From sequence record MK573636: a DNA stretch of 64,000 bases; one strand, written 5' to 3'. The position numbers and the translations under genes were made by a program. The DNA comes from Escherichia phage vB_EcoM_PHB13. The notes beneath the pieces are model-generated. The model was not told the origin of the DNA. It saw nothing but the letters and a program-made list of their open reading frames with translations, and searched no databases. Below are positions 1,437 through 44,262 of the stretch, in pieces (position 1 is the first letter of the stretch; each line of letters begins with the position of its first letter).

Positions 1437-3680
1437 ATGATTAAAAATGTTGTTAAGTCTTCCGGTCTGACTGTTCCGTTTGAAAAAGAAAAAGTAATGA
1501 AAATTCTGGAAGCGGCAGCCGAAGGTCATAACGTTGATCCATATGAATTGTTTGATATGGTTGAACCACTTCTGACAGAAGGTATGTCTACCAATGATAT
1601 CCAGAAAGTATTGATTAAGGTCGCCGCAGATAACATTACTGTAGAAACGCCTGATTATCAATATGTAGCAAGTAACCTTGCAATGTTCGCTCTTCGTAAA
1701 TCAGTATACGGTCAATTCCAACCGATTGATTTTTATAGCCATATTGAGCGTAATATTGCAACCGGAAAATATGATCGTGAAATTCTGCAAAAGTATTCCC
1801 GTGAAGAAGTGGAATATCTGGAGAAATTCATCGACCATAAACTTGATTTTAAAATGACCTATGCTGGTGCGATGCAGTTAAAAGAGAAATATCTTGTTCA
1901 GGATCGCAGCACTAAGAAAATCATTGAAACACCGCAATTTGCGTATATGCTGATCGGTATGTGCTTGCATCAAGAAGAGACAGAAAATCGACTTGAACAT
2001 GTGATTGATTTTTATAATGCTGTTGCGAATAAGCAAATCTCTCTGCCTACTCCGATTATGGCAGGTGTGCGTACCCCAACACGCCAATTTAGTTCGTGTG
2101 TGGTGATTGAAAGTGATGACTCATTGCAGGGCATCAACGAAACAGCAAATGCAATCATCAAGTATATTAGCAAGCGTGCTGGTATCGGTATCAACGCTGG
2201 CATGATTCGCGCGGAAGGATCTAAGATCGGGCATGGTGAAGTTCGTCATACTGGCGTTATCCCATTCTGGAAACATTTTCAGACTGCCGTTAAGTCATGC
2301 TCACAAGGCGGTATTCGTGGCGGGGCGGCGACTCTCTATTACCCAATGTGGCATTTAGAGTTTGAAAGTCTTATTGTGTTGAAGAACAATAAGGGGGTGG
2401 AAGATAACCGCATTCGTCATCTTGATTACGGCGTACAGATTAATAACCTGATGGTAGAGCGATTCCTTAAACGGGATTACATTACTCTGTTTAGTCCAGA
2501 TGTTGCAGGTGGCTTGTTGTGGGATCTGTACTTCCGAGATGAGGAAGGTTTCCGCCAGCTTTACGAAAAACTGGAAAAAGATCCGAGTGTTCGTAAAACT
2601 CGTGTTAAAGCCGAAGACCTGTTTTTAGCGGTGGCAATTGAACGTTTTAACACTGGTCGAATCTATCCAGCGTTCACAGACAACATGAACAATCACGGGG
2701 CGTTTATTCGTAATGTAGCACCGATTAAACAATCCAACCTGTGTTGTGAAATTGCTCTGCCGACAAAACCGATGGGTCGTGATGATTCAGAGATCAGTCT
2801 ATGCACTTTGGCAGCATATGTTTTAGGAAACTTTGATATCGAAAATATGGAAGAAGTAGAACGCATTGCTATGGTTATGGTGCGTGCACTTGACAACCTG
2901 TTAGATTATCAGGATTATCCTGTAGAACAAGCTCTGACAGCCAAAAAACGTCGCTCTCTGGGTGTTGGCGTGACTAACTTTGCATCGTATCTCGCGGATA
3001 ATTTCTTCACATATGAAGACGCTAACGAGTTTACGCATAAAACGTTTGAACGCTTGCAATATGCTCTGATTAAGGCTAGTGTGCAACTAGCAAAAGAGAA
3101 GGGTACTTGCGAACTGATGCACGAAACACGTTATGGTCGCGGTGAACTGCCTATCGACTGGTACAAAAAGACAGTAGATGAACTGGTTGATCCGGTGTAT
3201 GAGATGGATTGGGAAGAACTGCGCGAAGACCTGAAAAAATATGGCATTCGTAACAGTACGCTTTCGGCTCTGATGCCTTGTGAGTCGTCTTCTCAGGTAT
3301 CTAACAGCACAAACGGTATTGAACCGCCTCGCGGGATTGTATCGGTTAAAGGATCAAAGGAAGGACAATTTAATCAGGTTATTCCGAACGTAGAGAATAA
3401 TGCTGATGTTATTGACCTGCTTTGGACACTGATCAAGAAAGGTAACAAGCCTTATCTGACACTGGCAGCGATTATGCAGAAGTTTGTAGATCAGGCGATT
3501 AGTTCCAATACATCCTATGATCCAAGCACTTATAAGACTGGTAAAGTCGATATTGCTGATGTGTTAGATGATATGTTGTTCGCTCAACATTACGGTCTGA
3601 AAACCCTGTATTATGCGAACGTTCGCGACGGTGCAGATGGTACGGAAGACGCTAGCGAGTGCTCATCTTGCAAGCTGTAA
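1437..3680 (+). CDS. nrdA: ribonucleotide reductase class Ia large subunit
   Basis: 747 aa; active-site NLCCEIALPT motif, C-terminal CSSC redox pair; strong Shine-Dalgarno GAGGT; T4 synteny td-nrdA-nrdB. Confidence 0.93.
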   Translation: MIKNVVKSSGLTVPFEKEKVMKILEAAAEGHNVDPYELFDMVEPLLTEGMSTNDIQKVLIKVAADNITVETPDYQYVASNLAMFALRKSVYGQFQPIDFYSHIERNIATGKYDREILQKYSREEVEYLEKFIDHKLDFKMTYAGAMQLKEKYLVQDRSTKKIIETPQFAYMLIGMCLHQEETENRLEHVIDFYNAVANKQISLPTPIMAGVRTPTRQFSSCVVIESDDSLQGINETANAIIKYISKRAGIGINAGMIRAEGSKIGHGEVRHTGVIPFWKHFQTAVKSCSQGGIRGGAATLYYPMWHLEFESLIVLKNNKGVEDNRIRHLDYGVQINNLMVERFLKRDYITLFSPDVAGGLLWDLYFRDEEGFRQLYEKLEKDPSVRKTRVKAEDLFLAVAIERFNTGRIYPAFTDNMNNHGAFIRNVAPIKQSNLCCEIALPTKPMGRDDSEISLCTLAAYVLGNFDIENMEEVERIAMVMVRALDNLLDYQDYPVEQALTAKKRRSLGVGVTNFASYLADNFFTYEDANEFTHKTFERLQYALIKASVQLAKEKGTCELMHETRYGRGELPIDWYKKTVDELVDPVYEMDWEELREDLKKYGIRNSTLSALMPCESSSQVSNSTNGIEPPRGIVSVKGSKEGQFNQVIPNVENNADVIDLLWTLIKKGNKPYLTLAAIMQKFVDQAISSNTSYDPSTYKTGKVDIADVLDDMLFAQHYGLKTLYYANVRDGADGTEDASECSSCKL

Positions 3681-11248: not shown

Positions 11249-11561
11249 ACAAGTTGATAATATCGCACTTCGTGAAGCACTAAAGAAAATGTTTTCGGTC
11301 GGTACTCACTCTTTGCAGTTTACTAAGAAAGATGGTACTGTCCGTGAGATGATCGCCACGCGAGATCCGGCACTGATGCCATTTGAAACATACGAAAAAT
11401 GGTTAGTTCCTAATGTTGAAAAACCGCGTAAAGAATCAGAAACATCTTTGCCAGTATATGAAATTGCAGTTGAAGGTTTCCGTAGTTTTGGGCTTGATAG
11501 TCTGATTAATGTAGACGGGCTGACTCCAGCGCAGATCGTCGAAATTTACGGTGGCAGTTGA
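11235..11561 (+). CDS. hypothetical protein (108 aa)
   Basis: ORF overlapping cd stop. Confidence 0.45.
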   Translation: MIMTEQVDNIALREALKKMFSVGTHSLQFTKKDGTVREMIATRDPALMPFETYEKWLVPNVEKPRKESETSLPVYEIAVEGFRSFGLDSLINVDGLTPAQIVEIYGGS

Positions 11562-12175
11562 CAATGGAAACAAAAGATGATAATATCGTATTACCAGCGC
11601 CGGAAGAATGGAGACAAGCTGTAGGTTATCCGTGGTATGAAATCTCTAATTATGGTAGATTGAGATCTATTGACCGAAGTATCGAATTTTATAGAGAAGT
11701 TTCTCCCGGTAATATTAAGCTCGTAAAACAAAAACGTGCTGGTAAAATAATAAAACCAATTTTAGACCGATATGGATATTATTATTCAACATTGTCAAAA
11801 CAAAAAGACAATGGTAAAATCTCAGTTAAAGCCGAAAAGATACATCGACTTGTAGCAAATGCATTTCTAGGAGACGTTACCGGACTTGAGGTTAATCACA
11901 TCAATGGTGTAAAAACCTGCAATTATGTGTGGAATCTAGAAATAGTAACCTTACTAGAAAATATGAGACATTCATTTAGAACTGGACTCAATAACAATGT
12001 CGGTGAAAACCACTCACGGGCAAAACTGACAAATGCGCAAGTCGAAGAAATAATGCGGCTTAAAGGAAAAGTTAAGAAGCAAATTATAGCTGATATGTTT
12101 AATGTTTCTTATTGTTGTATAGCGCAAATACATTCCGGTCTGCGGAGAAATCCAAAGGTCGCGAAATATAAATAA
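11558..12175 (+). CDS. HNH homing endonuclease (Mob-like, NUMOD4-type N-terminus)
   Basis: PWYEISNYGRLRS motif and HNH core HINGVKTCNYVWNLEIVT; inserted between cd and gene 31. Confidence 0.7.
   Translation: MTMETKDDNIVLPAPEEWRQAVGYPWYEISNYGRLRSIDRSIEFYREVSPGNIKLVKQKRAGKIIKPILDRYGYYYSTLSKQKDNGKISVKAEKIHRLVANAFLGDVTGLEVNHINGVKTCNYVWNLEIVTLLENMRHSFRTGLNNNVGENHSRAKLTNAQVEEIMRLKGKVKKQIIADMFNVSYCCIAQIHSGLRRNPKVAKYK
12167..12174 (+). promoter_or_regulatory. late promoter -10 box TATAAATA upstream of gene 31
   Basis: Exact TATAAATA ~38 nt upstream of gene 31 ATG, overlapping end of HNH gene. Confidence 0.5.
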
Positions 12176-12211
12176 TTTACTATTGAGATGAATTGAAGAG
12201 GTAAGAAAATT

Positions 12212-12535
12212 ATGACCGTTAAAACTCCTAAAGCACTTGGTGACTATGTGATCATTGAAGCTAAAGCGGAAAGCGCAGGGACCGAAGTAAAGAGCGATTT
12301 TGGTATTATCATCGAGCAAAAACGAACTATGGGAGAGATTCCTTTAGTCGGTAAGATTATTGATATCGGTGATAACGTTGATAAAGAATTGCTGGGCAAG
12401 ACTGTATTGCTTCCTCATGGGAAACTTAATAAAGTTCCTCATCCAGACGTTATTAACGGCGTTAAGAAGGAAGAAGAGATCGACCTGAAATGGACTGTAA
12501 CGCACAAACAGAATATTGTGGTAGTTTACGGTTAA
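12212..12535 (+). CDS. gp31: co-chaperonin GroES homolog (gp31), capsid folding
   Basis: 107 aa; colinear with T4 gp31 (GEIP loop, NKVPHPDV); SD GAAGAGGTAA. Confidence 0.8.
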   Translation: MTVKTPKALGDYVIIEAKAESAGTEVKSDFGIIIEQKRTMGEIPLVGKIIDIGDNVDKELLGKTVLLPHGKLNKVPHPDVINGVKKEEEIDLKWTVTHKQNIVVVYG

Positions 12536-12546
12536 TGATTTTAAAC

Positions 12547-12576
12547 GGCGGGAAATAATCCCGCCTATATTTTGGC
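12547..12576 (+). terminator. rho-independent terminator (GGCGGGA-AATAA-TCCCGCC + TATATTTT)
   Basis: Read directly after gene 31. Confidence 0.65.
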
Positions 12577-12617
12577 TATATGATTTTGTAAGTTATTGAT
12601 TATTAAGGAATTTTATT

Positions 12618-12782
12618 ATGAAAACTATGAATGTAAACATCCACGAAATCCATACCGAAGTATTCACCGAAGAAGACCAGTTTGGTGTATGGGTAAATCC
12701 TCATTCGATTACTATCGATATTCCTAATGACGATTATGATCCGTTCTCTCTGATTAGCGAGATTAGTTTCAATGACTTCTGA
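12618..12782 (+). CDS. small hypothetical protein (54 aa)
   Basis: ORF below track cutoff; acidic; weak SD. Confidence 0.3.
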   Translation: MKTMNVNIHEIHTEVFTEEDQFGVWVNPHSITIDIPNDDYDPFSLISEISFNDF

Positions 12783-13251
12783 AATTGATATCTATGCGGG
12801 TGGACCTTATCCATCGGGTGAATTGAGTAATTTCAATAAAAGACCATTCCGTCTATTTGGTTGCGATATTAACAGCACAGAAGGATTTTTACAGGGGCTA
12901 AGATTTAAGAACCCTCAGAGACAAAGAGAAATCTTTTTGATGCATGGTGGCAAAGCAAAAAGAACCGGAAGAACTGAAAAGATTGAGAATCACATGTTAT
13001 ATTTTCAGGGTCGCCCGATTCATCGAATGAGTGAGCATTATTACAAACTGGTACATCTGGCATTTGTTACGATGGCACGGAATAACCCAGAATTTTGTAA
13101 AGCATTACTCTCGACCGGAAATAAGAAATTACGTCATAGTATAGGTGGAACTGATCCGTTAAAGACTATATTGACTGAATCGGAATTTTGTAGTATCCTC
13201 AATGATATTCGTGAACGTTTAACAAAACGAGGTGAAAATGTCAATTCTTAA
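12772..13251 (+). CDS. NADAR (YbiA/DUF1768)-like protein
   Basis: Motifs LSNFNKRPF, STEGFLQG, GKAKRTGR, LLSTGNKKLRHS match NADAR family signature from memory. Confidence 0.55.
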   Translation: MTSEIDIYAGGPYPSGELSNFNKRPFRLFGCDINSTEGFLQGLRFKNPQRQREIFLMHGGKAKRTGRTEKIENHMLYFQGRPIHRMSEHYYKLVHLAFVTMARNNPEFCKALLSTGNKKLRHSIGGTDPLKTILTESEFCSILNDIRERLTKRGENVNS

Positions 13252-14734
13252 TATCATTAATCAGCTTGCAGCAACAGACAAAACATCGCTGAAAGAAAAG
13301 ATCCTGAAAGAATCTGCAAGCAATGAAACGCTGAAAGAATGCTTTTATCTGGCATATTGCAAACAGGTTACGTTTGGCGTAAAGAAATACGATAAACCAT
13401 CGCGTTATTCGTCTGTATTGTCTTTATCCGGTGCATTACAGGTCTTTAAAAATAAACTTGCCACGCGTCAAGTAACTGGTAACGCAGCATTACAGCTAGT
13501 TACCGATACTCTGACTTGCTTGTCAGAAGATGATGCTAAAGTTGCAATGATGGTCCTGAATCGTGATCTGGAATGTGGTTGTTCCGCTACCACTGCAAAC
13601 AAGGTATGGAAGAAACTGATCCCCCAGCAACCGTGTCACCTTGCATCGTCATGTTCTGATAAGACTATTGCTAATATCAAGTATCCGGCGTATGCACAAC
13701 TTAAAAGCGATGGCGCTCGTGGTATGGCTGATATTGACGGGGAAACATTAGCAATCTATACCCGTTCAGGTAATACCTATCAGGGACTTGATGATTTGTT
13801 TGCGGTTTTAGAGCGTCTACGAGGCCGTGGAATTGTTCTAGATGGCGAATTGGTATATATGCCTACCCTTTCGCAAACACCAGCGCAGAACTTCGTTGAG
13901 AGCATTTATGATGGTACTCTGTCATGGATATTTGAAGAAGAGGAAATGCCATTAACGCCAGTAGCGGAAGCAGTAAAAGAATCCGTTGTTGCAGATCGTC
14001 AGACCGGAAATGGTATCCTCAACAAATCACTGAAAGGAACTATTCCAAAAGAAGAAGCCCAATGTATTGTTTACACTGTCTGGGATGTTATCGACCGTGA
14101 TGTGTATTACGGAAACGAGAAAGCAACGAAGCAATATAAAGATCGATTCGAAGAACTAAAACAGATTGTTGAAGAACTTAACGATCCTCGTGTTCAGATA
14201 ATCGAAAACACTGTAGTTAACAATATAGATGAAGCTCGCGAAGTATATCATCGCTATGTAAACATGGGCTTAGAAGGTATTATCCTTAAAAATTTACATG
14301 GTGTATTTGAAGATCGTCGCAGTAAAGATCAGGTTAAATTTAAAGAAGTGATTGACTTCGACGCGGAAATTGTTGATGTATATCCGCATAGTAAAGACCC
14401 TAATAAGGTAGGCGGTTTTACTGTCCGTAGTGCGTGCGGACGAATGATGACTAACACCGGATCGGGATTGACTGACACCACAACCGAAAAAGGTGATGAT
14501 GGTATTGAACGTGTAATTCCGTTCGATCGTCGAAATGAACTCGACCGAGAAATGTTATGGGCTGACCGTCATAACCTGATTGGAAAAGTCATTGAGATGA
14601 CATGCAACGGGTATATCCGCAGCAAATCACGTAAAGAAGATGAACCGGAGTTCTCTTTATTTCTCCCGATCATCAAACGTATTCGCTACGACAAGACCAC
14701 TGCAAATACAGTAAAAGAGGTATTCGATGTGTGA
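13232..14734 (+). CDS. gp30: ATP-dependent DNA ligase
   Basis: 500 aa; colinear with T4 gp30 incl. RDLECG and adenylylation motif KSDGARG. Confidence 0.9.
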   Translation: MKMSILNIINQLAATDKTSLKEKILKESASNETLKECFYLAYCKQVTFGVKKYDKPSRYSSVLSLSGALQVFKNKLATRQVTGNAALQLVTDTLTCLSEDDAKVAMMVLNRDLECGCSATTANKVWKKLIPQQPCHLASSCSDKTIANIKYPAYAQLKSDGARGMADIDGETLAIYTRSGNTYQGLDDLFAVLERLRGRGIVLDGELVYMPTLSQTPAQNFVESIYDGTLSWIFEEEEMPLTPVAEAVKESVVADRQTGNGILNKSLKGTIPKEEAQCIVYTVWDVIDRDVYYGNEKATKQYKDRFEELKQIVEELNDPRVQIIENTVVNNIDEAREVYHRYVNMGLEGIILKNLHGVFEDRRSKDQVKFKEVIDFDAEIVDVYPHSKDPNKVGGFTVRSACGRMMTNTGSGLTDTTTEKGDDGIERVIPFDRRNELDREMLWADRHNLIGKVIEMTCNGYIRSKSRKEDEPEFSLFLPIIKRIRYDKTTANTVKEVFDV

Positions 14735-15200
14735 TAATGAAGGGGCGAAAGCCCCTAAACCTAAAAAATTGTCAAAGAAAGAGCAACGCCAGATCCTGAA
14801 AATGAAATATGGTGGACGTTGTGCCTATTGTGGCGAGGAACTAGGGGATCGCTGGCACGCAGACCACATCAAACCAGTATTGCGACGCTCAAAGGTAGTC
14901 TATGATGAAAATGGACGAATTGCCCGTAATGATGATGGATCGTGGAAGTATAAGGTTGTAGGAATGCATAAACCGGAACATGATATACTTGATAACATGA
15001 ATCCGGCGTGTGTGCAATGCAATCTTTATAAAAGCTGTATGGGCTTAGAATACTGGCGTAAGTTTATACGCGAGAACTTCCAGAAGTACATTCAGCGAAA
15101 TATGGGGTTGCGAGCGGCTAAACGCTTTGGCTTGCTGTCAATTCATGACCAGCCAGTAGAATTTTATTTCGAAAAGTACGAGCGCGAAAATAAGGAGTAA
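14727..15200 (+). CDS. HNH endonuclease (zinc-finger type)
   Basis: CAYCGEE...HADHIKP...NPACVQCN HNH signature; hairpin GGGGCGAAAGCCCC sits in first codons so true start may be Met26 (14802). Confidence 0.6.
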   Translation: MCDNEGAKAPKPKKLSKKEQRQILKMKYGGRCAYCGEELGDRWHADHIKPVLRRSKVVYDENGRIARNDDGSWKYKVVGMHKPEHDILDNMNPACVQCNLYKSCMGLEYWRKFIRENFQKYIQRNMGLRAAKRFGLLSIHDQPVEFYFEKYERENKE

Positions 15201-15207
15201 CCATTAT

Positions 15208-15552
15208 ATGTTCTTTATGTTTATCTATATCCTTTTTGTTTTCCTGGTAGGCATGTACGCAAGCCGTTTAAACCGTAGCGTTATCGGTTATGTTCTCCTA
15301 TCTTTGATCATTAGCCCGTTGATCACCTTTATCATTTTGTTGGTGTTGGGTCCAACTAAATCATATGAACAGGAACAAGCAGACAAGCTAAAAGCAGAGA
15401 TGGTAGAGAAACAATTTGTTCAACTGTATCTAGAAAACCCAGAGTTTGAGGAAGTTTCCACCCTTAAGCGAATGTATGACGATCTAACACGATACCCTAA
15501 CTATCGAAATGTGCTGGCTATGGAAGAAGCCATTAAGCTCATGAAAAAATAA
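15208..15552 (+). CDS. small membrane protein (2 predicted TM helices)
   Basis: Hydrophobic segments FIYILFVFLVGMYA and VLLSLIISPLITFIILLVLG. Confidence 0.5.
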   Translation: MFFMFIYILFVFLVGMYASRLNRSVIGYVLLSLIISPLITFIILLVLGPTKSYEQEQADKLKAEMVEKQFVQLYLENPEFEEVSTLKRMYDDLTRYPNYRNVLAMEEAIKLMKK

Positions 15553-23084: not shown

Positions 23085-25136
23085 ATGTTTAACTTAGAAA
23101 TCGACGATCTAATGATTGAATCTTTCGAGAAATGGCTGTTGACGGAAGAGGAAGAAAACTTTGGCAGTATTGCTCCGGTACAGTGCTTAAAGCCTAAGCA
23201 GAATCCTAAACAGCTTTTTGCAGTACAGACACGCGATAAAGATGTGATTGTCCGTCTTTGTAACTTCACCAACAAAACACCTAAAATCATTCGTATGGGT
23301 GACAAGACCGCACATGTTGTACTGTGCGAAATGAACAAAAGCGGTCGTATTGTACAGCTTAAAAATGGTCTAGGCGATAACCCGATTGCAGTTATGGCAA
23401 GTGCTTTTGATGTGGTTATGGAAACAGCCCGTAAAGCGCAATTAGACGCTGTTATGTTCCGTTTTAACGTATCCCGCATGAAAGGTAAGACCGAACTGGT
23501 TAAGCGCGTTATAGAGCGTTTGGTGCGTCGTACACCGAAGTTTGAAGTATTCCAGCAGGAAGTAATGACCAGCAAAAAGATCGCTTTAGTTGTTGTCAAG
23601 CGTCGAGGTATGGCGATTGATAAGATTAAAGGGATTAAACTTGATGAATCCTTGTTCACTAAAGTAGAAAGTGATTTAGGTGATCGCTGGGTATCTAAAG
23701 CTACTGGCGAATCTCTGACTAAAGATGAAGCATATGCGGCTAGTCTTGTGTCAGAAGAAGAACGAAACGCGGAAGCAGAACAACGCGTAGCGGCTAAATC
23801 TCGTTTGACTAAAGAAGAAATGCTGAAAACTCAAGCGACCTATAACAGCGACTATGTGAATCATCCAGAAAAAATTAATCTTAAACCGGAAGAAGATATC
23901 ACCGAAGCAGAACCTAAGAAACAGTTTAATACTCTGATTGACCGTCAAGCCTTAGAACGTTCAACCGCCCGTTCTCTGAATGACTGGACAAGTGATATTA
24001 TCACTCGCTATGGTTTCATGCGTACTATTTTTGAAAGCGAAGCCGATGCAAAATACGCAGTAAGCGAACTGGTAAAAGTTCAGGACCAATATGATCCGTT
24101 GTCTGCGGAAGTTATCGCAGCATCAATCAAACGCTTAAAAGAAATCATGAGCGAGGAAGTATTCGAAAACAAGATCACTGCGTTGGCAATGGATCGAGTA
24201 GACCAGTCTATGCCAGCAGATGTAAAAGCTGAAATGCTGCGTAGTCATATCACACAGATTAAAACCGATGCCCTTCGTAATGTTGCCTCCGGTATGTTTG
24301 AAGCAATTGCAAGTAACATGGGTGAAATGATGGCAGATATTGATCTTGACCTACCAGGCGCGGAAGGTTTTGTGTTGAGCGAATATGCGGATGCAGCATA
24401 CATCAATATGAACAACTTCCTAACCGATCGTAAGCTGGATGAGTTCGAAGGGATCGCTGACCCAGAAGAATTGGTCAAGATGTGCGACGCACTGGATAAT
24501 GCCTTCGCTAACTATGGCGTTAAACTTGATCCGGGTACTATTCTGTATCGTGGTATGGACTTCCGGTCTCAAATGTGGGAAACTGCACGTAAGCAAAAAG
24601 CGTTTTACTTTAAAAACTATGTGAGCACTTCCCTTGCACCTAACATTTTTGGCGGCTGGAATGCAAACGTGGCTAGTGCCGTTGCTGGTGTTGATTCTAT
24701 GGCTGGCTCTCGCGGTGAAGGTGGCGCGAATGTTGCTTTCTCCATTGCTGGCGCGGAAAACATCCCTGTATTGCCAGTAGGTAACAAAGCATTTGCTTAC
24801 AAAGAATGCGAGATTTTACTTCCTCGCGGTGTTGTGTTATCCTTTGATACGGTAACTCGTGCTACGGCATCGACGGATTCACAAGAAACATATTACATTG
24901 AGGCACATATTATGAACAAAAGTGAACTGGCAGCATTACAAGAATCTGGCGAAATGATCGCGGATGGTGATGCATTCATCCGTGAAGGTGTTGTTAAACC
25001 TGCTTCTGACCTGTCTTTCTCCAGATTCATTACAGAAGCTAAAACCGAACGTAAGAAAGCAGATAAGGCAACTCTACGTCAGCTTATCGCTGATCTGGTG
25101 TCTGTAGACGCAATGCCAGATAAATTTAAAATGTAA
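23085..25136 (+). CDS. alt: Alt-like ADP-ribosyltransferase (virion-packaged in T4)
   Basis: 683 aa; matches to T4 Alt (FTKVESDLGD, FYFKNYVSTSLAPNIFGGW) and R-S-E ART triad (YRG, STS, ECEILLPRG). Confidence 0.8.
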   Translation: MFNLEIDDLMIESFEKWLLTEEEENFGSIAPVQCLKPKQNPKQLFAVQTRDKDVIVRLCNFTNKTPKIIRMGDKTAHVVLCEMNKSGRIVQLKNGLGDNPIAVMASAFDVVMETARKAQLDAVMFRFNVSRMKGKTELVKRVIERLVRRTPKFEVFQQEVMTSKKIALVVVKRRGMAIDKIKGIKLDESLFTKVESDLGDRWVSKATGESLTKDEAYAASLVSEEERNAEAEQRVAAKSRLTKEEMLKTQATYNSDYVNHPEKINLKPEEDITEAEPKKQFNTLIDRQALERSTARSLNDWTSDIITRYGFMRTIFESEADAKYAVSELVKVQDQYDPLSAEVIAASIKRLKEIMSEEVFENKITALAMDRVDQSMPADVKAEMLRSHITQIKTDALRNVASGMFEAIASNMGEMMADIDLDLPGAEGFVLSEYADAAYINMNNFLTDRKLDEFEGIADPEELVKMCDALDNAFANYGVKLDPGTILYRGMDFRSQMWETARKQKAFYFKNYVSTSLAPNIFGGWNANVASAVAGVDSMAGSRGEGGANVAFSIAGAENIPVLPVGNKAFAYKECEILLPRGVVLSFDTVTRATASTDSQETYYIEAHIMNKSELAALQESGEMIADGDAFIREGVVKPASDLSFSRFITEAKTERKKADKATLRQLIADLVSVDAMPDKFKM

Positions 25137-25214: not shown

Positions 25215-26039
25215 ATGTTCAAGAAATTACAGGATTTTCGTCTTTCAGAAGAATCACGCGAATCAATGATGGAACGTATGGATAATTACATCGAAACATA
25301 TGACATTGAGGGGATTAATGGTTACATGATCACTGAGATGATCAGCGATCAGATTAACTTTGATGATTATGTGAAGGTTATCCGCTTCCTTGAGCGTGAG
25401 ACACAAGATTATGGATTTGTCAAGAAAATCATTAATGTGATGTATGAAGTACACTCCGAAGACTTTGGAGATAATGTATTCAAACATTACAAACATAACA
25501 ACATAACCCCAGCAGAATATAATGCAATCTGTGATTATGTGTCTGAACAATACGAATGGGTAAATGGTGCTCTCTTAGGGGAAGAAGACATGACCGATGA
25601 GATATCAGAGATTGTTGATTTGATGGATTGCGCCATGGATAAAACCGAAAAGTTAAACGGTACTCTTTATCGCGGTCAACATCTTGACATTCAGACAATA
25701 GAGCGTATTATTGAAGATAAGGAATTTACCTTTAAAAACTTTGTGTCAACCAGCATGACACCGATCATCTTTGGAGGCTGGCTATCAAACAGCACTAGCC
25801 TTTATTGTGAGAATCGATATGAATCCATGACCGGAAAGATGCAACATTCTTGTAATGTATCGTGGGTAATTGACGTAAAAGATCATAAAGGTTTTGTTGT
25901 TGGGTCAATTGCATGGAATCCTTGCGAATGTGAAGTAATTTTACCGCGCGGGACTTGCGTCAAGGTAAACGACGTAGTAGAATCTTTCGGTGATGAGAAT
26001 CGTAGACAATTTACAATTTTCGGTGAGGTGACTAAATGA
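25215..26039 (+). CDS. ADP-ribosyltransferase, short Alt/Mod-like paralog
   Basis: R-S-E motifs LYRGQ, FTFKNFVSTSMTPIIFGGW, CECEVILPRG; 274 aa. Confidence 0.7.
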   Translation: MFKKLQDFRLSEESRESMMERMDNYIETYDIEGINGYMITEMISDQINFDDYVKVIRFLERETQDYGFVKKIINVMYEVHSEDFGDNVFKHYKHNNITPAEYNAICDYVSEQYEWVNGALLGEEDMTDEISEIVDLMDCAMDKTEKLNGTLYRGQHLDIQTIERIIEDKEFTFKNFVSTSMTPIIFGGWLSNSTSLYCENRYESMTGKMQHSCNVSWVIDVKDHKGFVVGSIAWNPCECEVILPRGTCVKVNDVVESFGDENRRQFTIFGEVTK

Positions 26040-42675: not shown

Positions 42676-44262
42676 TTAGCAACCTTTAACCCATACACGA
42701 CGGAAGTATGCGTTTTTACCTACGCTGTCTTTGCTCAACATACCGGAGGTGATGCGAGCGGACGGTGCTTGGGATTTGCTGTCTGCAAACGGGTTAATGC
42801 CGATGCCATAGCGAGTCTTGAAGCCCAGAACCGGGTGGAAAGACTGCGGGTCAGTTGCACGCAGCGGAGTCAGAGCAACATACGGAGCATAGTAGATACC
42901 AGCATCCATTTCGTTGTCGCCTTTGTAACCTACGGTGAAGTAGTCTTGACGAGCATACTGGTCGATGAACACTTTGTACTTACCAGCCAGAACACCAGCG
43001 AAAACAGCTTTAGTGGTGTCGGTATTCAGACCTTTTGCAGCACCCTGCATAGCAAGACTGATACCCTGATCAGCAGAAGCCAGAATGTTTACAACGTTAC
43101 GGGAAGCGATAACAAAGTTACCCGCACCGCGACCAGTCTGACGAGCGATTTCAGCAGCTTCTTTGTCGATCTGGTAGATCAGAGATTTGAAGGATTCACC
43201 AGCCCAACGAGCACCGCGAGTATCGATCGGGTCTTGCAGGTCAAATACACCAGCTTTAGAACCAACGGTCTGAGTCATGCCAGTCTTACCAACCTGAGCG
43301 GTAAAGTTGATGACGTCAACGATTTCACGGTTGATTTCAAGCAGAACTTCGTTAGCCAGGATAGCATTCAGTTCAGCGTCAGCATCCATACCGTGTACAG
43401 CACGCAGATCCTGCGCAACTTCGATAGAGTAACGGGCTTTCAGTTGGCGAGATTTCGCTTCAACAACCTGTTTGTCAATACGCATTGACATTTCAGCCCA
43501 CGGGTTATTGCTGGAACCGTTAAAGCCTTCCTGAATTTCGGCAATGGAAGTAGCCATACCGAAAGCGATTTCAGCAAGTTTACCTTCTTCCATCAGCTTC
43601 ATGACAACTTCATCATCTGACTCGCTGCCAGCTTTGGTCGGGGTTACTGCGCCAGCGGTAACGTTTTGCAGATATGCAATGCCAGTTTCTGCGAAGGTGT
43701 GGTGTACAATATCACCTGCTTCAATCTGAGTATTGATAGTTAGTTTAGCAAACGGAGTCCCGGTCGGAGAACCTACAGCTGCACCTTTAGCAGCAAGAGA
43801 GCTATGGAACGCATCAGGTGCATACATCGGATGGAATGCTTCTTTAGCCTGAGACGCCAGCGGATCAGCACCATATACAGAACGGATTGCAAAGATCTGG
43901 CTAGTCGGAGTGCTCATCGGCTGAACGCCACAAATATCAAATGCGATCAGGTTAGGGATAGCACGGCGAACCATACCGATAACAGCCGGACCTACGTTGG
44001 TGATTGCACCGGTAGTCTGACCAGCCGCGATGTGAGATGCATCATAACCGTGGTCGCCAGCAACTTCGGCTTCTGCGATAAAGCCACCGAATGCTTCAAC
44101 AACTTTTTCATCCTTATAGATCGGGTCTACAGCAAAATCCGCTTCCTGAGATTCCAGAATTTTAGCAACCAGTTTCTGCTTAGACGCAGTTGCGATTTCC
44201 GGCAGTTTTTCGTTCTCCAGCAGCGGGGACCATTTTTCCATCAGTTCTTTGGTAGTTTTCAT
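42676..44262 (-). CDS. gp23: major capsid protein
   Basis: 528 aa, high identity to T4 gp23 over full length (RRAIPNLIAFDICGVQPM, GRGAGNFVIASRNVVN, YYAPYVALTPLR). Confidence 0.97.
   Translation of the reverse strand: MKTTKELMEKWSPLLENEKLPEIATASKQKLVAKILESQEADFAVDPIYKDEKVVEAFGGFIAEAEVAGDHGYDASHIAAGQTTGAITNVGPAVIGMVRRAIPNLIAFDICGVQPMSTPTSQIFAIRSVYGADPLASQAKEAFHPMYAPDAFHSSLAAKGAAVGSPTGTPFAKLTINTQIEAGDIVHHTFAETGIAYLQNVTAGAVTPTKAGSESDDEVVMKLMEEGKLAEIAFGMATSIAEIQEGFNGSSNNPWAEMSMRIDKQVVEAKSRQLKARYSIEVAQDLRAVHGMDADAELNAILANEVLLEINREIVDVINFTAQVGKTGMTQTVGSKAGVFDLQDPIDTRGARWAGESFKSLIYQIDKEAAEIARQTGRGAGNFVIASRNVVNILASADQGISLAMQGAAKGLNTDTTKAVFAGVLAGKYKVFIDQYARQDYFTVGYKGDNEMDAGIYYAPYVALTPLRATDPQSFHPVLGFKTRYGIGINPFADSKSQAPSARITSGMLSKDSVGKNAYFRRVWVKGC

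Follow-up and report, generated by a model that had tools for sequence, protein, structure and literature searches.

We examined a 64,000-nucleotide stretch of DNA from Escherichia phage vB_EcoM_PHB13 (sequence record MK573636), hereafter the window, with attention to an open reading frame (ORF) of 159 amino acids that begins with ATG and occupies positions 12772..13251 of the forward strand, stop codon included. A reading made from the letters alone (the sequence-only reading) had delimited this same ORF and assigned its product to the NADAR (YbiA-like) proteins. The ORF lies in a tightly packed arrangement on one strand. Its start is overlapped by 11 nucleotides by a 54-amino-acid ORF (12618..12782, +) that matches phrog_15277 (E = 3.7e-42) and returned zero matches in a Pfam scan, and the two are probably co-translated. 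At the other end, as the sequence-only reading had it, stands a DNA ligase gene: an ATP-dependent enzyme orthologous to the product of T4 gene 30 (13238..14734, +; PF01068, E = 2.8e-22; 41% identity to T4 gp30), whose ATG at 13238 gives a 14-nucleotide overlap with the stop of the ORF. A divergent metagenomic relative, L008, has the same layout, with the 54-amino-acid ORF upstream, the same three-gene order, and both overlaps. The findings below identify the 159-amino-acid ORF as the counterpart of T4 gene 30.3, and we refer to it as adfN.

Membership of the encoded protein in the gp30.3 family, together with its NADAR fold, is nearly certain. The Pfam model PF08010 (Phage_30_3, "Bacteriophage protein GP30.3") is matched from position 2 to 138 of its 138 positions at 130.6 bits (E = 4.6e-38), against a gathering score of 36, and the PHROGs family phrog_652 is matched at E = 2e-44. 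A NADAR profile search, which the sequence-only reading had suggested as a check, gave a divided answer: beside the strong PF08010 match, the NADAR model PF08719 reached only 15.9 bits (E = 0.016), below its gathering score of 35.1, and Pfam models the phage branch apart from it as PF08010. NCBIfam likewise yielded a NADAR match only, also below threshold. Zero matches were obtained with the PADLOC defence models, both for this protein and for the T4 protein, and that search is therefore uninformative.

Comparison with T4 bears out the assignment. T4 gp30.3 (152 amino acids) aligns with the protein end to end by BLASTP at 38% identity (E = 4e-30), and when used as a query it finds one match in the window and one in the close relative KFS-EC, whose complete genome has these genes in T4 order (pseT, cd, 31, 30.3, 30, alt). 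By sequence and synteny alike, the adfN copy is the syntenic orthologue of T4 gp30.3. A structure predicted from an input alignment without the T4 sequence row contains the YbiA/NADAR fold, and it matches the same three PDB NADAR entries as the prediction for the T4 protein. The NADAR domain begins at about residue 4. The four motifs cited in the sequence-only reading are present (LSNFNKRPF at residues 18–26, STEGFLQG at 35–42, GKAKRTGR at 60–67, and LLSTGNKKL at 112–120), and in the profile search they fall on conserved blocks aligned with E. coli YbiA and a Phytophthora NADAR. The label "NADAR (YbiA-like)" thus holds for the fold, but the protein is not strictly YbiA-like: it belongs to the phage gp30.3 branch and carries histidine where YbiA has glutamate.

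The family is widespread among phages. We detected it by tblastn in 1,509 phage records, mainly T4-like phages of enterobacteria, Aeromonas, Acinetobacter, and Vibrio, and an exhaustive HMMER search gathered 969 representative clusters. The region around adfN shares 99.0% identity with Escherichia phage vB_EcoM_G37-3 and 95–99% with 58 further records; these close records come from RB49-like T-even phages, placed in the Straboviridae genus Krischvirus. A scan of IMG/VR added two close loci only. In the annotated public relatives that we examined, the gene is labelled "hypothetical protein." Four family representatives of about 290 amino acids (P0013, P0064, P0109, and P0115) contain two tandem gp30.3-type domains. 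In P0064 and P0109 the second domain lacks the catalytic glutamate described below (ASVASF, KTMQNL) while retaining an arginine seven residues further on, and from their sequences these second domains may be pseudo-enzyme partner domains.

Residue conservation was assessed in one alignment of 156 family domains built from the exhaustive representative search, the initial homologue search having given 7 relatives, too few for an alignment. Every near-invariant position is retained in the protein: L18-S19-N20-F21, F26, E37, Q41, H122, T135, and E138. E37 (codon 12880..12882, +) is the counterpart, in the BLASTP alignment, of the catalytic glutamate E36 of the T4 protein, and glutamate occupies this column in 152 of the 156 domains. 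H122 (codon 13135..13137, +), on the last strand, aligns with T4 H123 and is the histidine that marks phage (gp30.3-type) NADARs, present in 154 of the 156. The C-terminal α-helix (residues 136–158; 13177..13245, +) is intact in the predicted model, its TILTExEF motif is conserved, and the segment TILTESEF...IRERL aligns through to the end of the T4 protein. Residue 44 is an arginine (AGA, codon 12901..12903, +) and stands at the phosphate-coordinating lysine position in alignments with T4 (K43), PnNADAR (K50), and the E. coli C7 NADAR (K95).

Substitution patterns were estimated by the Nei-Gojobori method. Between adfN and its 67%-identical counterpart in L008, the proportions of non-synonymous and synonymous differences (pN and pS) are 0.185 and 0.678, which corresponds to a ratio of non-synonymous to synonymous substitution rates (dN/dS) of ~0.12; the KFS-EC copy differs by three synonymous and three non-synonymous changes. 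Judged by its sequence, adfN is functional and under constraint (purifying selection). It is not a chance ORF, because the PF08010 and phrog_652 matches are strong and dN/dS is so low.

Much is known of this protein family from published work. NADARs remove ADP-ribose from the N2 position of guanine (Schuller et al., Mol Cell 2023), and in the phage branch histidine takes the place of the last-strand glutamate of YbiA and aspartate of DarG1 (Schuller et al., Mol Cell 2023; Cihlova et al., Toxins 2024, PMC11125620). In vitro, T4 gp30.3 removes guanosine-linked but not thymidine-linked ADP-ribose, and uninfected cells are not protected from DarT1 by it (Cihlova et al., PMC11125620). The protein was renamed AdfN, for anti-DarT factor NADAR (Johannesman et al., bioRxiv 2024; Nat Commun 2025, PMC11825919), and is necessary and sufficient for the escape of T2 and T4 from DarTG1. 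According to the same study, the E36A variant of T4 AdfN is dead, and RB69 is sensitive to DarTG1 because a frameshift deletes the C-terminal helix of its AdfN. AdfN does not bind to DarT1 and leaves DarTG2 unaffected, and it requires a T-even infection context, probably a further phage factor; T4 and T2 adfN deletion mutants plaque normally in the absence of DarTG1 (Johannesman et al., PMC11825919). We observed in passing that the methods of PMC11125620 describe the T4 gp30.3 construct as residues 1–208, whereas gene 30.3 of the T4 record NC_000866 encodes 152 amino acids. A length of 208 amino acids is that of gp61.2 (AdfA), and the construct length is probably a typographical slip.

By analogy with T4, we consider it probable that the copy in the window, the Krischvirus orthologue of T4 AdfN, is an anti-DarTG1 guanine-ADP-ribose glycohydrolase. 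Our analysis places the protein in its family, shows it to be orthologous to and syntenic with T4 30.3, and establishes that it has the NADAR fold, keeps the glutamate, histidine, and C-terminal helix, and is under purifying selection; substrate, chemistry, and anti-DarTG1 role would carry over from the T4 work. The proposal of the sequence-only reading that the protein reverses guanine ADP-ribosylation in the face of a DarTG-like host defence is accordingly well placed, supported as it is by orthology to T4 gp30.3, the NADAR fold, and the published role of AdfN, though by analogy. In the mechanism that we envisage, AdfN would be a single-domain NADAR-fold ADP-ribosylglycohydrolase produced early in infection. 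A host DarT1-type toxin would place ADP-ribose on the N2 amino group of guanine in replicating phage DNA; the enzyme would bind the ADP-ribose, with R44 coordinating the diphosphate and E37 and H122 flanking the distal ribose, and would cut the N-glycosidic bond, restoring unmodified guanine and allowing replication to go on. The AdfN copy would in effect be an orphan "antitoxin" against DarTG1.

Several points weigh against this assignment. Identity to T4 AdfN is only 38%, and direct comparison gave a Pfam NADAR match below threshold and no PADLOC match, which is also the case for T4 AdfN itself. The full activity of T4 AdfN probably depends on a further T-even factor (PMC11825919), which a Krischvirus might lack. 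The lysine that is essential in T4 (K43) is arginine (R44) here. The K43A variant of T4 AdfN is inactive (PMC11825919), and a K95R variant of the DarG1-type NADAR of E. coli C7 was active in vitro but did not rescue cells from DarT1 toxicity (Schuller et al., Mol Cell 2023); because rescue in cells was lost with that change, the in vivo efficiency of the R44 copy is uncertain.

The distribution of the substitution bears on how it should be read. Seven residues past the catalytic glutamate, the 156 representatives have lysine in 141 cases, arginine in 11, and another residue in 4. R44 is fixed in all the close relatives examined, KFS-EC, L008, L012, and L013, and the Acinetobacter T4-like phage that forms the nearest outgroup has it too. 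Moreover, arginine in combination with an intact glutamate and histidine recurs in three or more lineages that are closest to lysine-bearing neighbours, and for this reason R44 looks like a tolerated, selected variant rather than a lesion. One reading of this pattern is that the Krischvirus/Acinetobacter-phage branch of AdfN, with its fixed arginine, is a functionally shifted variant, possibly with another substrate range (guanosine-linked ADP-ribose on RNA, or the products of other ADP-ribosylating defence toxins) or with a different dependence on a T-even cofactor; we consider such a shift rather unlikely. As a natural lysine-to-arginine variant, the protein offers a modest lead for enzymology, namely whether arginine can serve phosphate binding in vivo.

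A related explanation keeps the enzyme class and changes the target, making ADP-ribose on RNA guanosine, or the products of other defence toxins that ADP-ribosylate bases, the main substrate in place of DarT1-modified DNA. The T4 phage NADAR does hydrolyze guanosine-linked ADP-ribose on RNA in vitro, the authors of the AdfN work propose that some counter-defences target other ADP-ribosylating systems, and the lysine-to-arginine change and 38% identity would permit a shifted preference. The T4 enzyme is, however, weaker than the C7 NADAR on RNA, no feature of the sequence suggests RNA, and escape from DarTG1 is the sole in vivo phenotype known for the family, all of which leads us to regard a principal substrate other than DarT1-modified DNA as unlikely.

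Alternatively, the copy could be attenuated or decaying, the arginine at the phosphate-binding position leaving it too weak to protect in vivo. The behavior of the DarG1-type K95R variant, active in vitro without rescue from DarT1, is in keeping with this, as is the presence of lysine in 90% of family representatives. Yet R44 has remained fixed among relatives at dS > 1.7 with dN/dS ~0.12 and is common to the Acinetobacter-phage outgroup, the same combination of arginine with intact glutamate and histidine has recurred in the lineages mentioned above, and all the remaining invariant residues are kept, as is the C-terminal helix. In addition, the close relative has no AdfA as back-up, so that loss of AdfN function would leave it with neither known anti-DarT1 factor. 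Attenuation is in our view very unlikely.

That last point draws on the complete KFS-EC genome, in which we found no homologues of gp42 (dCMP hydroxymethylase), β-glucosyltransferase (β-gt), AdfA (gp61.2), 30.1, or 30.2, while the control genes were found. With no AdfA found, AdfN is, as far as the KFS-EC sequence indicates, the only known anti-DarT1 factor of that phage. The DNA of RB49 has unmodified cytosine. T4 AdfN is stated in a preprint to prefer hydroxymethylated DNA (Johannesman et al., bioRxiv 2024), and the final paper finds that AdfN is still needed by T4-GT7, a phage whose DNA is unmodified (Johannesman et al., Nat Commun 2025, PMC11825919). Given the T4-GT7 result, we dropped the absence of hydroxymethylcytosine in this lineage as a contrast with that preference. 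A homologue of gp56 (dCTPase/dUTPase) is kept in KFS-EC (43569–44084; 51% identity) despite the unmodified-cytosine lineage.

The sequence-only reading took the gene's position in a DNA-metabolism block as a hint of function, and we rejected ligase adjacency as functional evidence: it is inherited T4 synteny and is not kept in the wider family. In Aeromonas phage 31 (L009), the 30.3 homologue (3001–3450) lies inside a tRNA cluster, beside vs.6 and with a tRNA-Arg gene directly after it, and this embedding shows that the 30.3 gene moves independently of the ligase block. In Rhizobium phage RL38J1 the gp30.3-family gene adjoins a helicase gene. Of the three phages examined, only an Acinetobacter T4-like phage has retained the order seen in T4, with one gene between 30.3 and the ligase.

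The same reading noted, correctly, that the phage also encodes ADP-ribosyltransferases, and the window holds two PF03496 genes. The first encodes an Alt-like enzyme of 683 amino acids (23085..25136, +; PF03496, E = 5.4e-9), labelled Alt-like in the relative KFS-EC; the second, a short enzyme of 274 amino acids (25215..26039, +; PF03496, E = 3.5e-17; phrog_15144, E = 1e-197), follows directly and is similar to the catalytic portion at the C-terminal end of Alt. These two genes, about 10 kb downstream of adfN, and a modA homologue annotated elsewhere in the close relative's genome are what could speak for AdfN reversing or tuning ADP-ribosylation by transferases that the phage itself makes (Alt, the short enzyme, ModA). 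Alt/Mod enzymes of the PF03496 type, however, modify proteins (arginine in RNA polymerase), and a note in the T4 record agrees. The NADARs tested so far act on base-linked ADP-ribose and are inactive when it is linked to thymidine or phosphate, T4 and T2 adfN deletions have no plaquing defect without DarTG1, and the family also occurs in phages where the gene is not near any ADP-ribosyltransferase gene. The suggestion of a role in managing phage-induced ADP-ribosylation therefore finds no support and is extremely improbable, and the Alt-like enzyme is not part of the adfN mechanism. Equally implausible is a housekeeping role as an N-glycosidase that, like YbiA, works on intermediates of the riboflavin pathway: the glutamate that defines YbiA is replaced by H122, the protein falls in the phage branch that the literature places closest to DarG1-type NADARs, and a defence-related role has been demonstrated for the T4 copy.

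Set beside known systems, the protein most resembles T4 AdfN, with which it shares PF08010, a size class (159 versus 152 amino acids), the cd-31-30.3-30-alt block, the catalytic glutamate, the phage-type histidine, and the C-terminal helix. It differs in having R44 for K43, in its direct overlap with the ligase gene where T4 interposes 30.1 and 30.2, in the absence of an internal 30.3' ORF, and in its Krischvirus source, whose close relative lacks dCMP hydroxymethylase, β-glucosyltransferase, and AdfA. The DarG1 NADARs of DarTG1 systems (E. coli C7; Geobacter lovleyi, PDB 8bat) carry a last-strand aspartate in place of the histidine here; unlike them, our protein has no N-terminal extension, no PADLOC match, and no adjacent DarT1 gene, its neighbours being the 54-amino-acid ORF and the ligase gene. 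T4 AdfN, for its part, cannot stand in for DarG1 in uninfected cells (PMC11825919). The E. coli YbiA (PDB 2b3w) subfamily is set apart by its last-strand glutamate, and YbiA serves riboflavin metabolism as a housekeeping enzyme and gives no protection from DarT1 in vivo. AdfN-Bas32 and AdfN-Bas60, from T5-like and Vequintavirinae phages, are likewise phage NADARs with anti-DarTG1 activity, but they come from other branches of the superfamily by independent acquisition and need no phage cofactor, whereas the protein described here is of the T4-type branch. Another T-even answer to DarT1 is AdfA (T4 gp61.2), which shares neither sequence nor mechanism with the protein described here: AdfA binds the toxin and lacks any enzymatic domain.

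These results offer a functional name for a gene annotated as hypothetical and lead to the prediction that phages of the RB49 type, some of them components of therapeutic cocktails, would resist E. coli carrying DarTG1. Beyond these two points they add little, because the family, fold, chemistry, and counter-defence role have already been published for T4 and the function is already known.

The sequence flanking the block provides some further observations. Upstream, 3' of gene 31, a GC-rich terminator-like hairpin (GGCGGGA...TCCCGCC) followed by a T-run was found by consensus scan at 12547..12565 (+). It is a plausible terminator after gene 31 and may mark the upstream boundary of a unit comprising the 54-amino-acid ORF, adfN, and the ligase gene, although this is weak evidence, since terminator-like sites are no commoner in the window than in shuffled sequence. 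Candidate promoter sites were also no commoner than in shuffled sequence, and we assigned no promoter. Between a phrog_1086 gene and gene 31 lies a homing-endonuclease ORF with NUMOD4 and HNH_3 domains (11558–12175, +). Several Krischvirus relatives cover only 83–84% of the interval 11500–15300, in two pieces, and what is missing is about as long as this ORF, which may therefore be a mobile insertion that only some of the genomes carry. Another HNH endonuclease ORF (PF01844; 14727–15200, +) overlaps the ligase stop codon, and endonuclease genes therefore stand on both flanks of the gene 31-adfN-ligase block.
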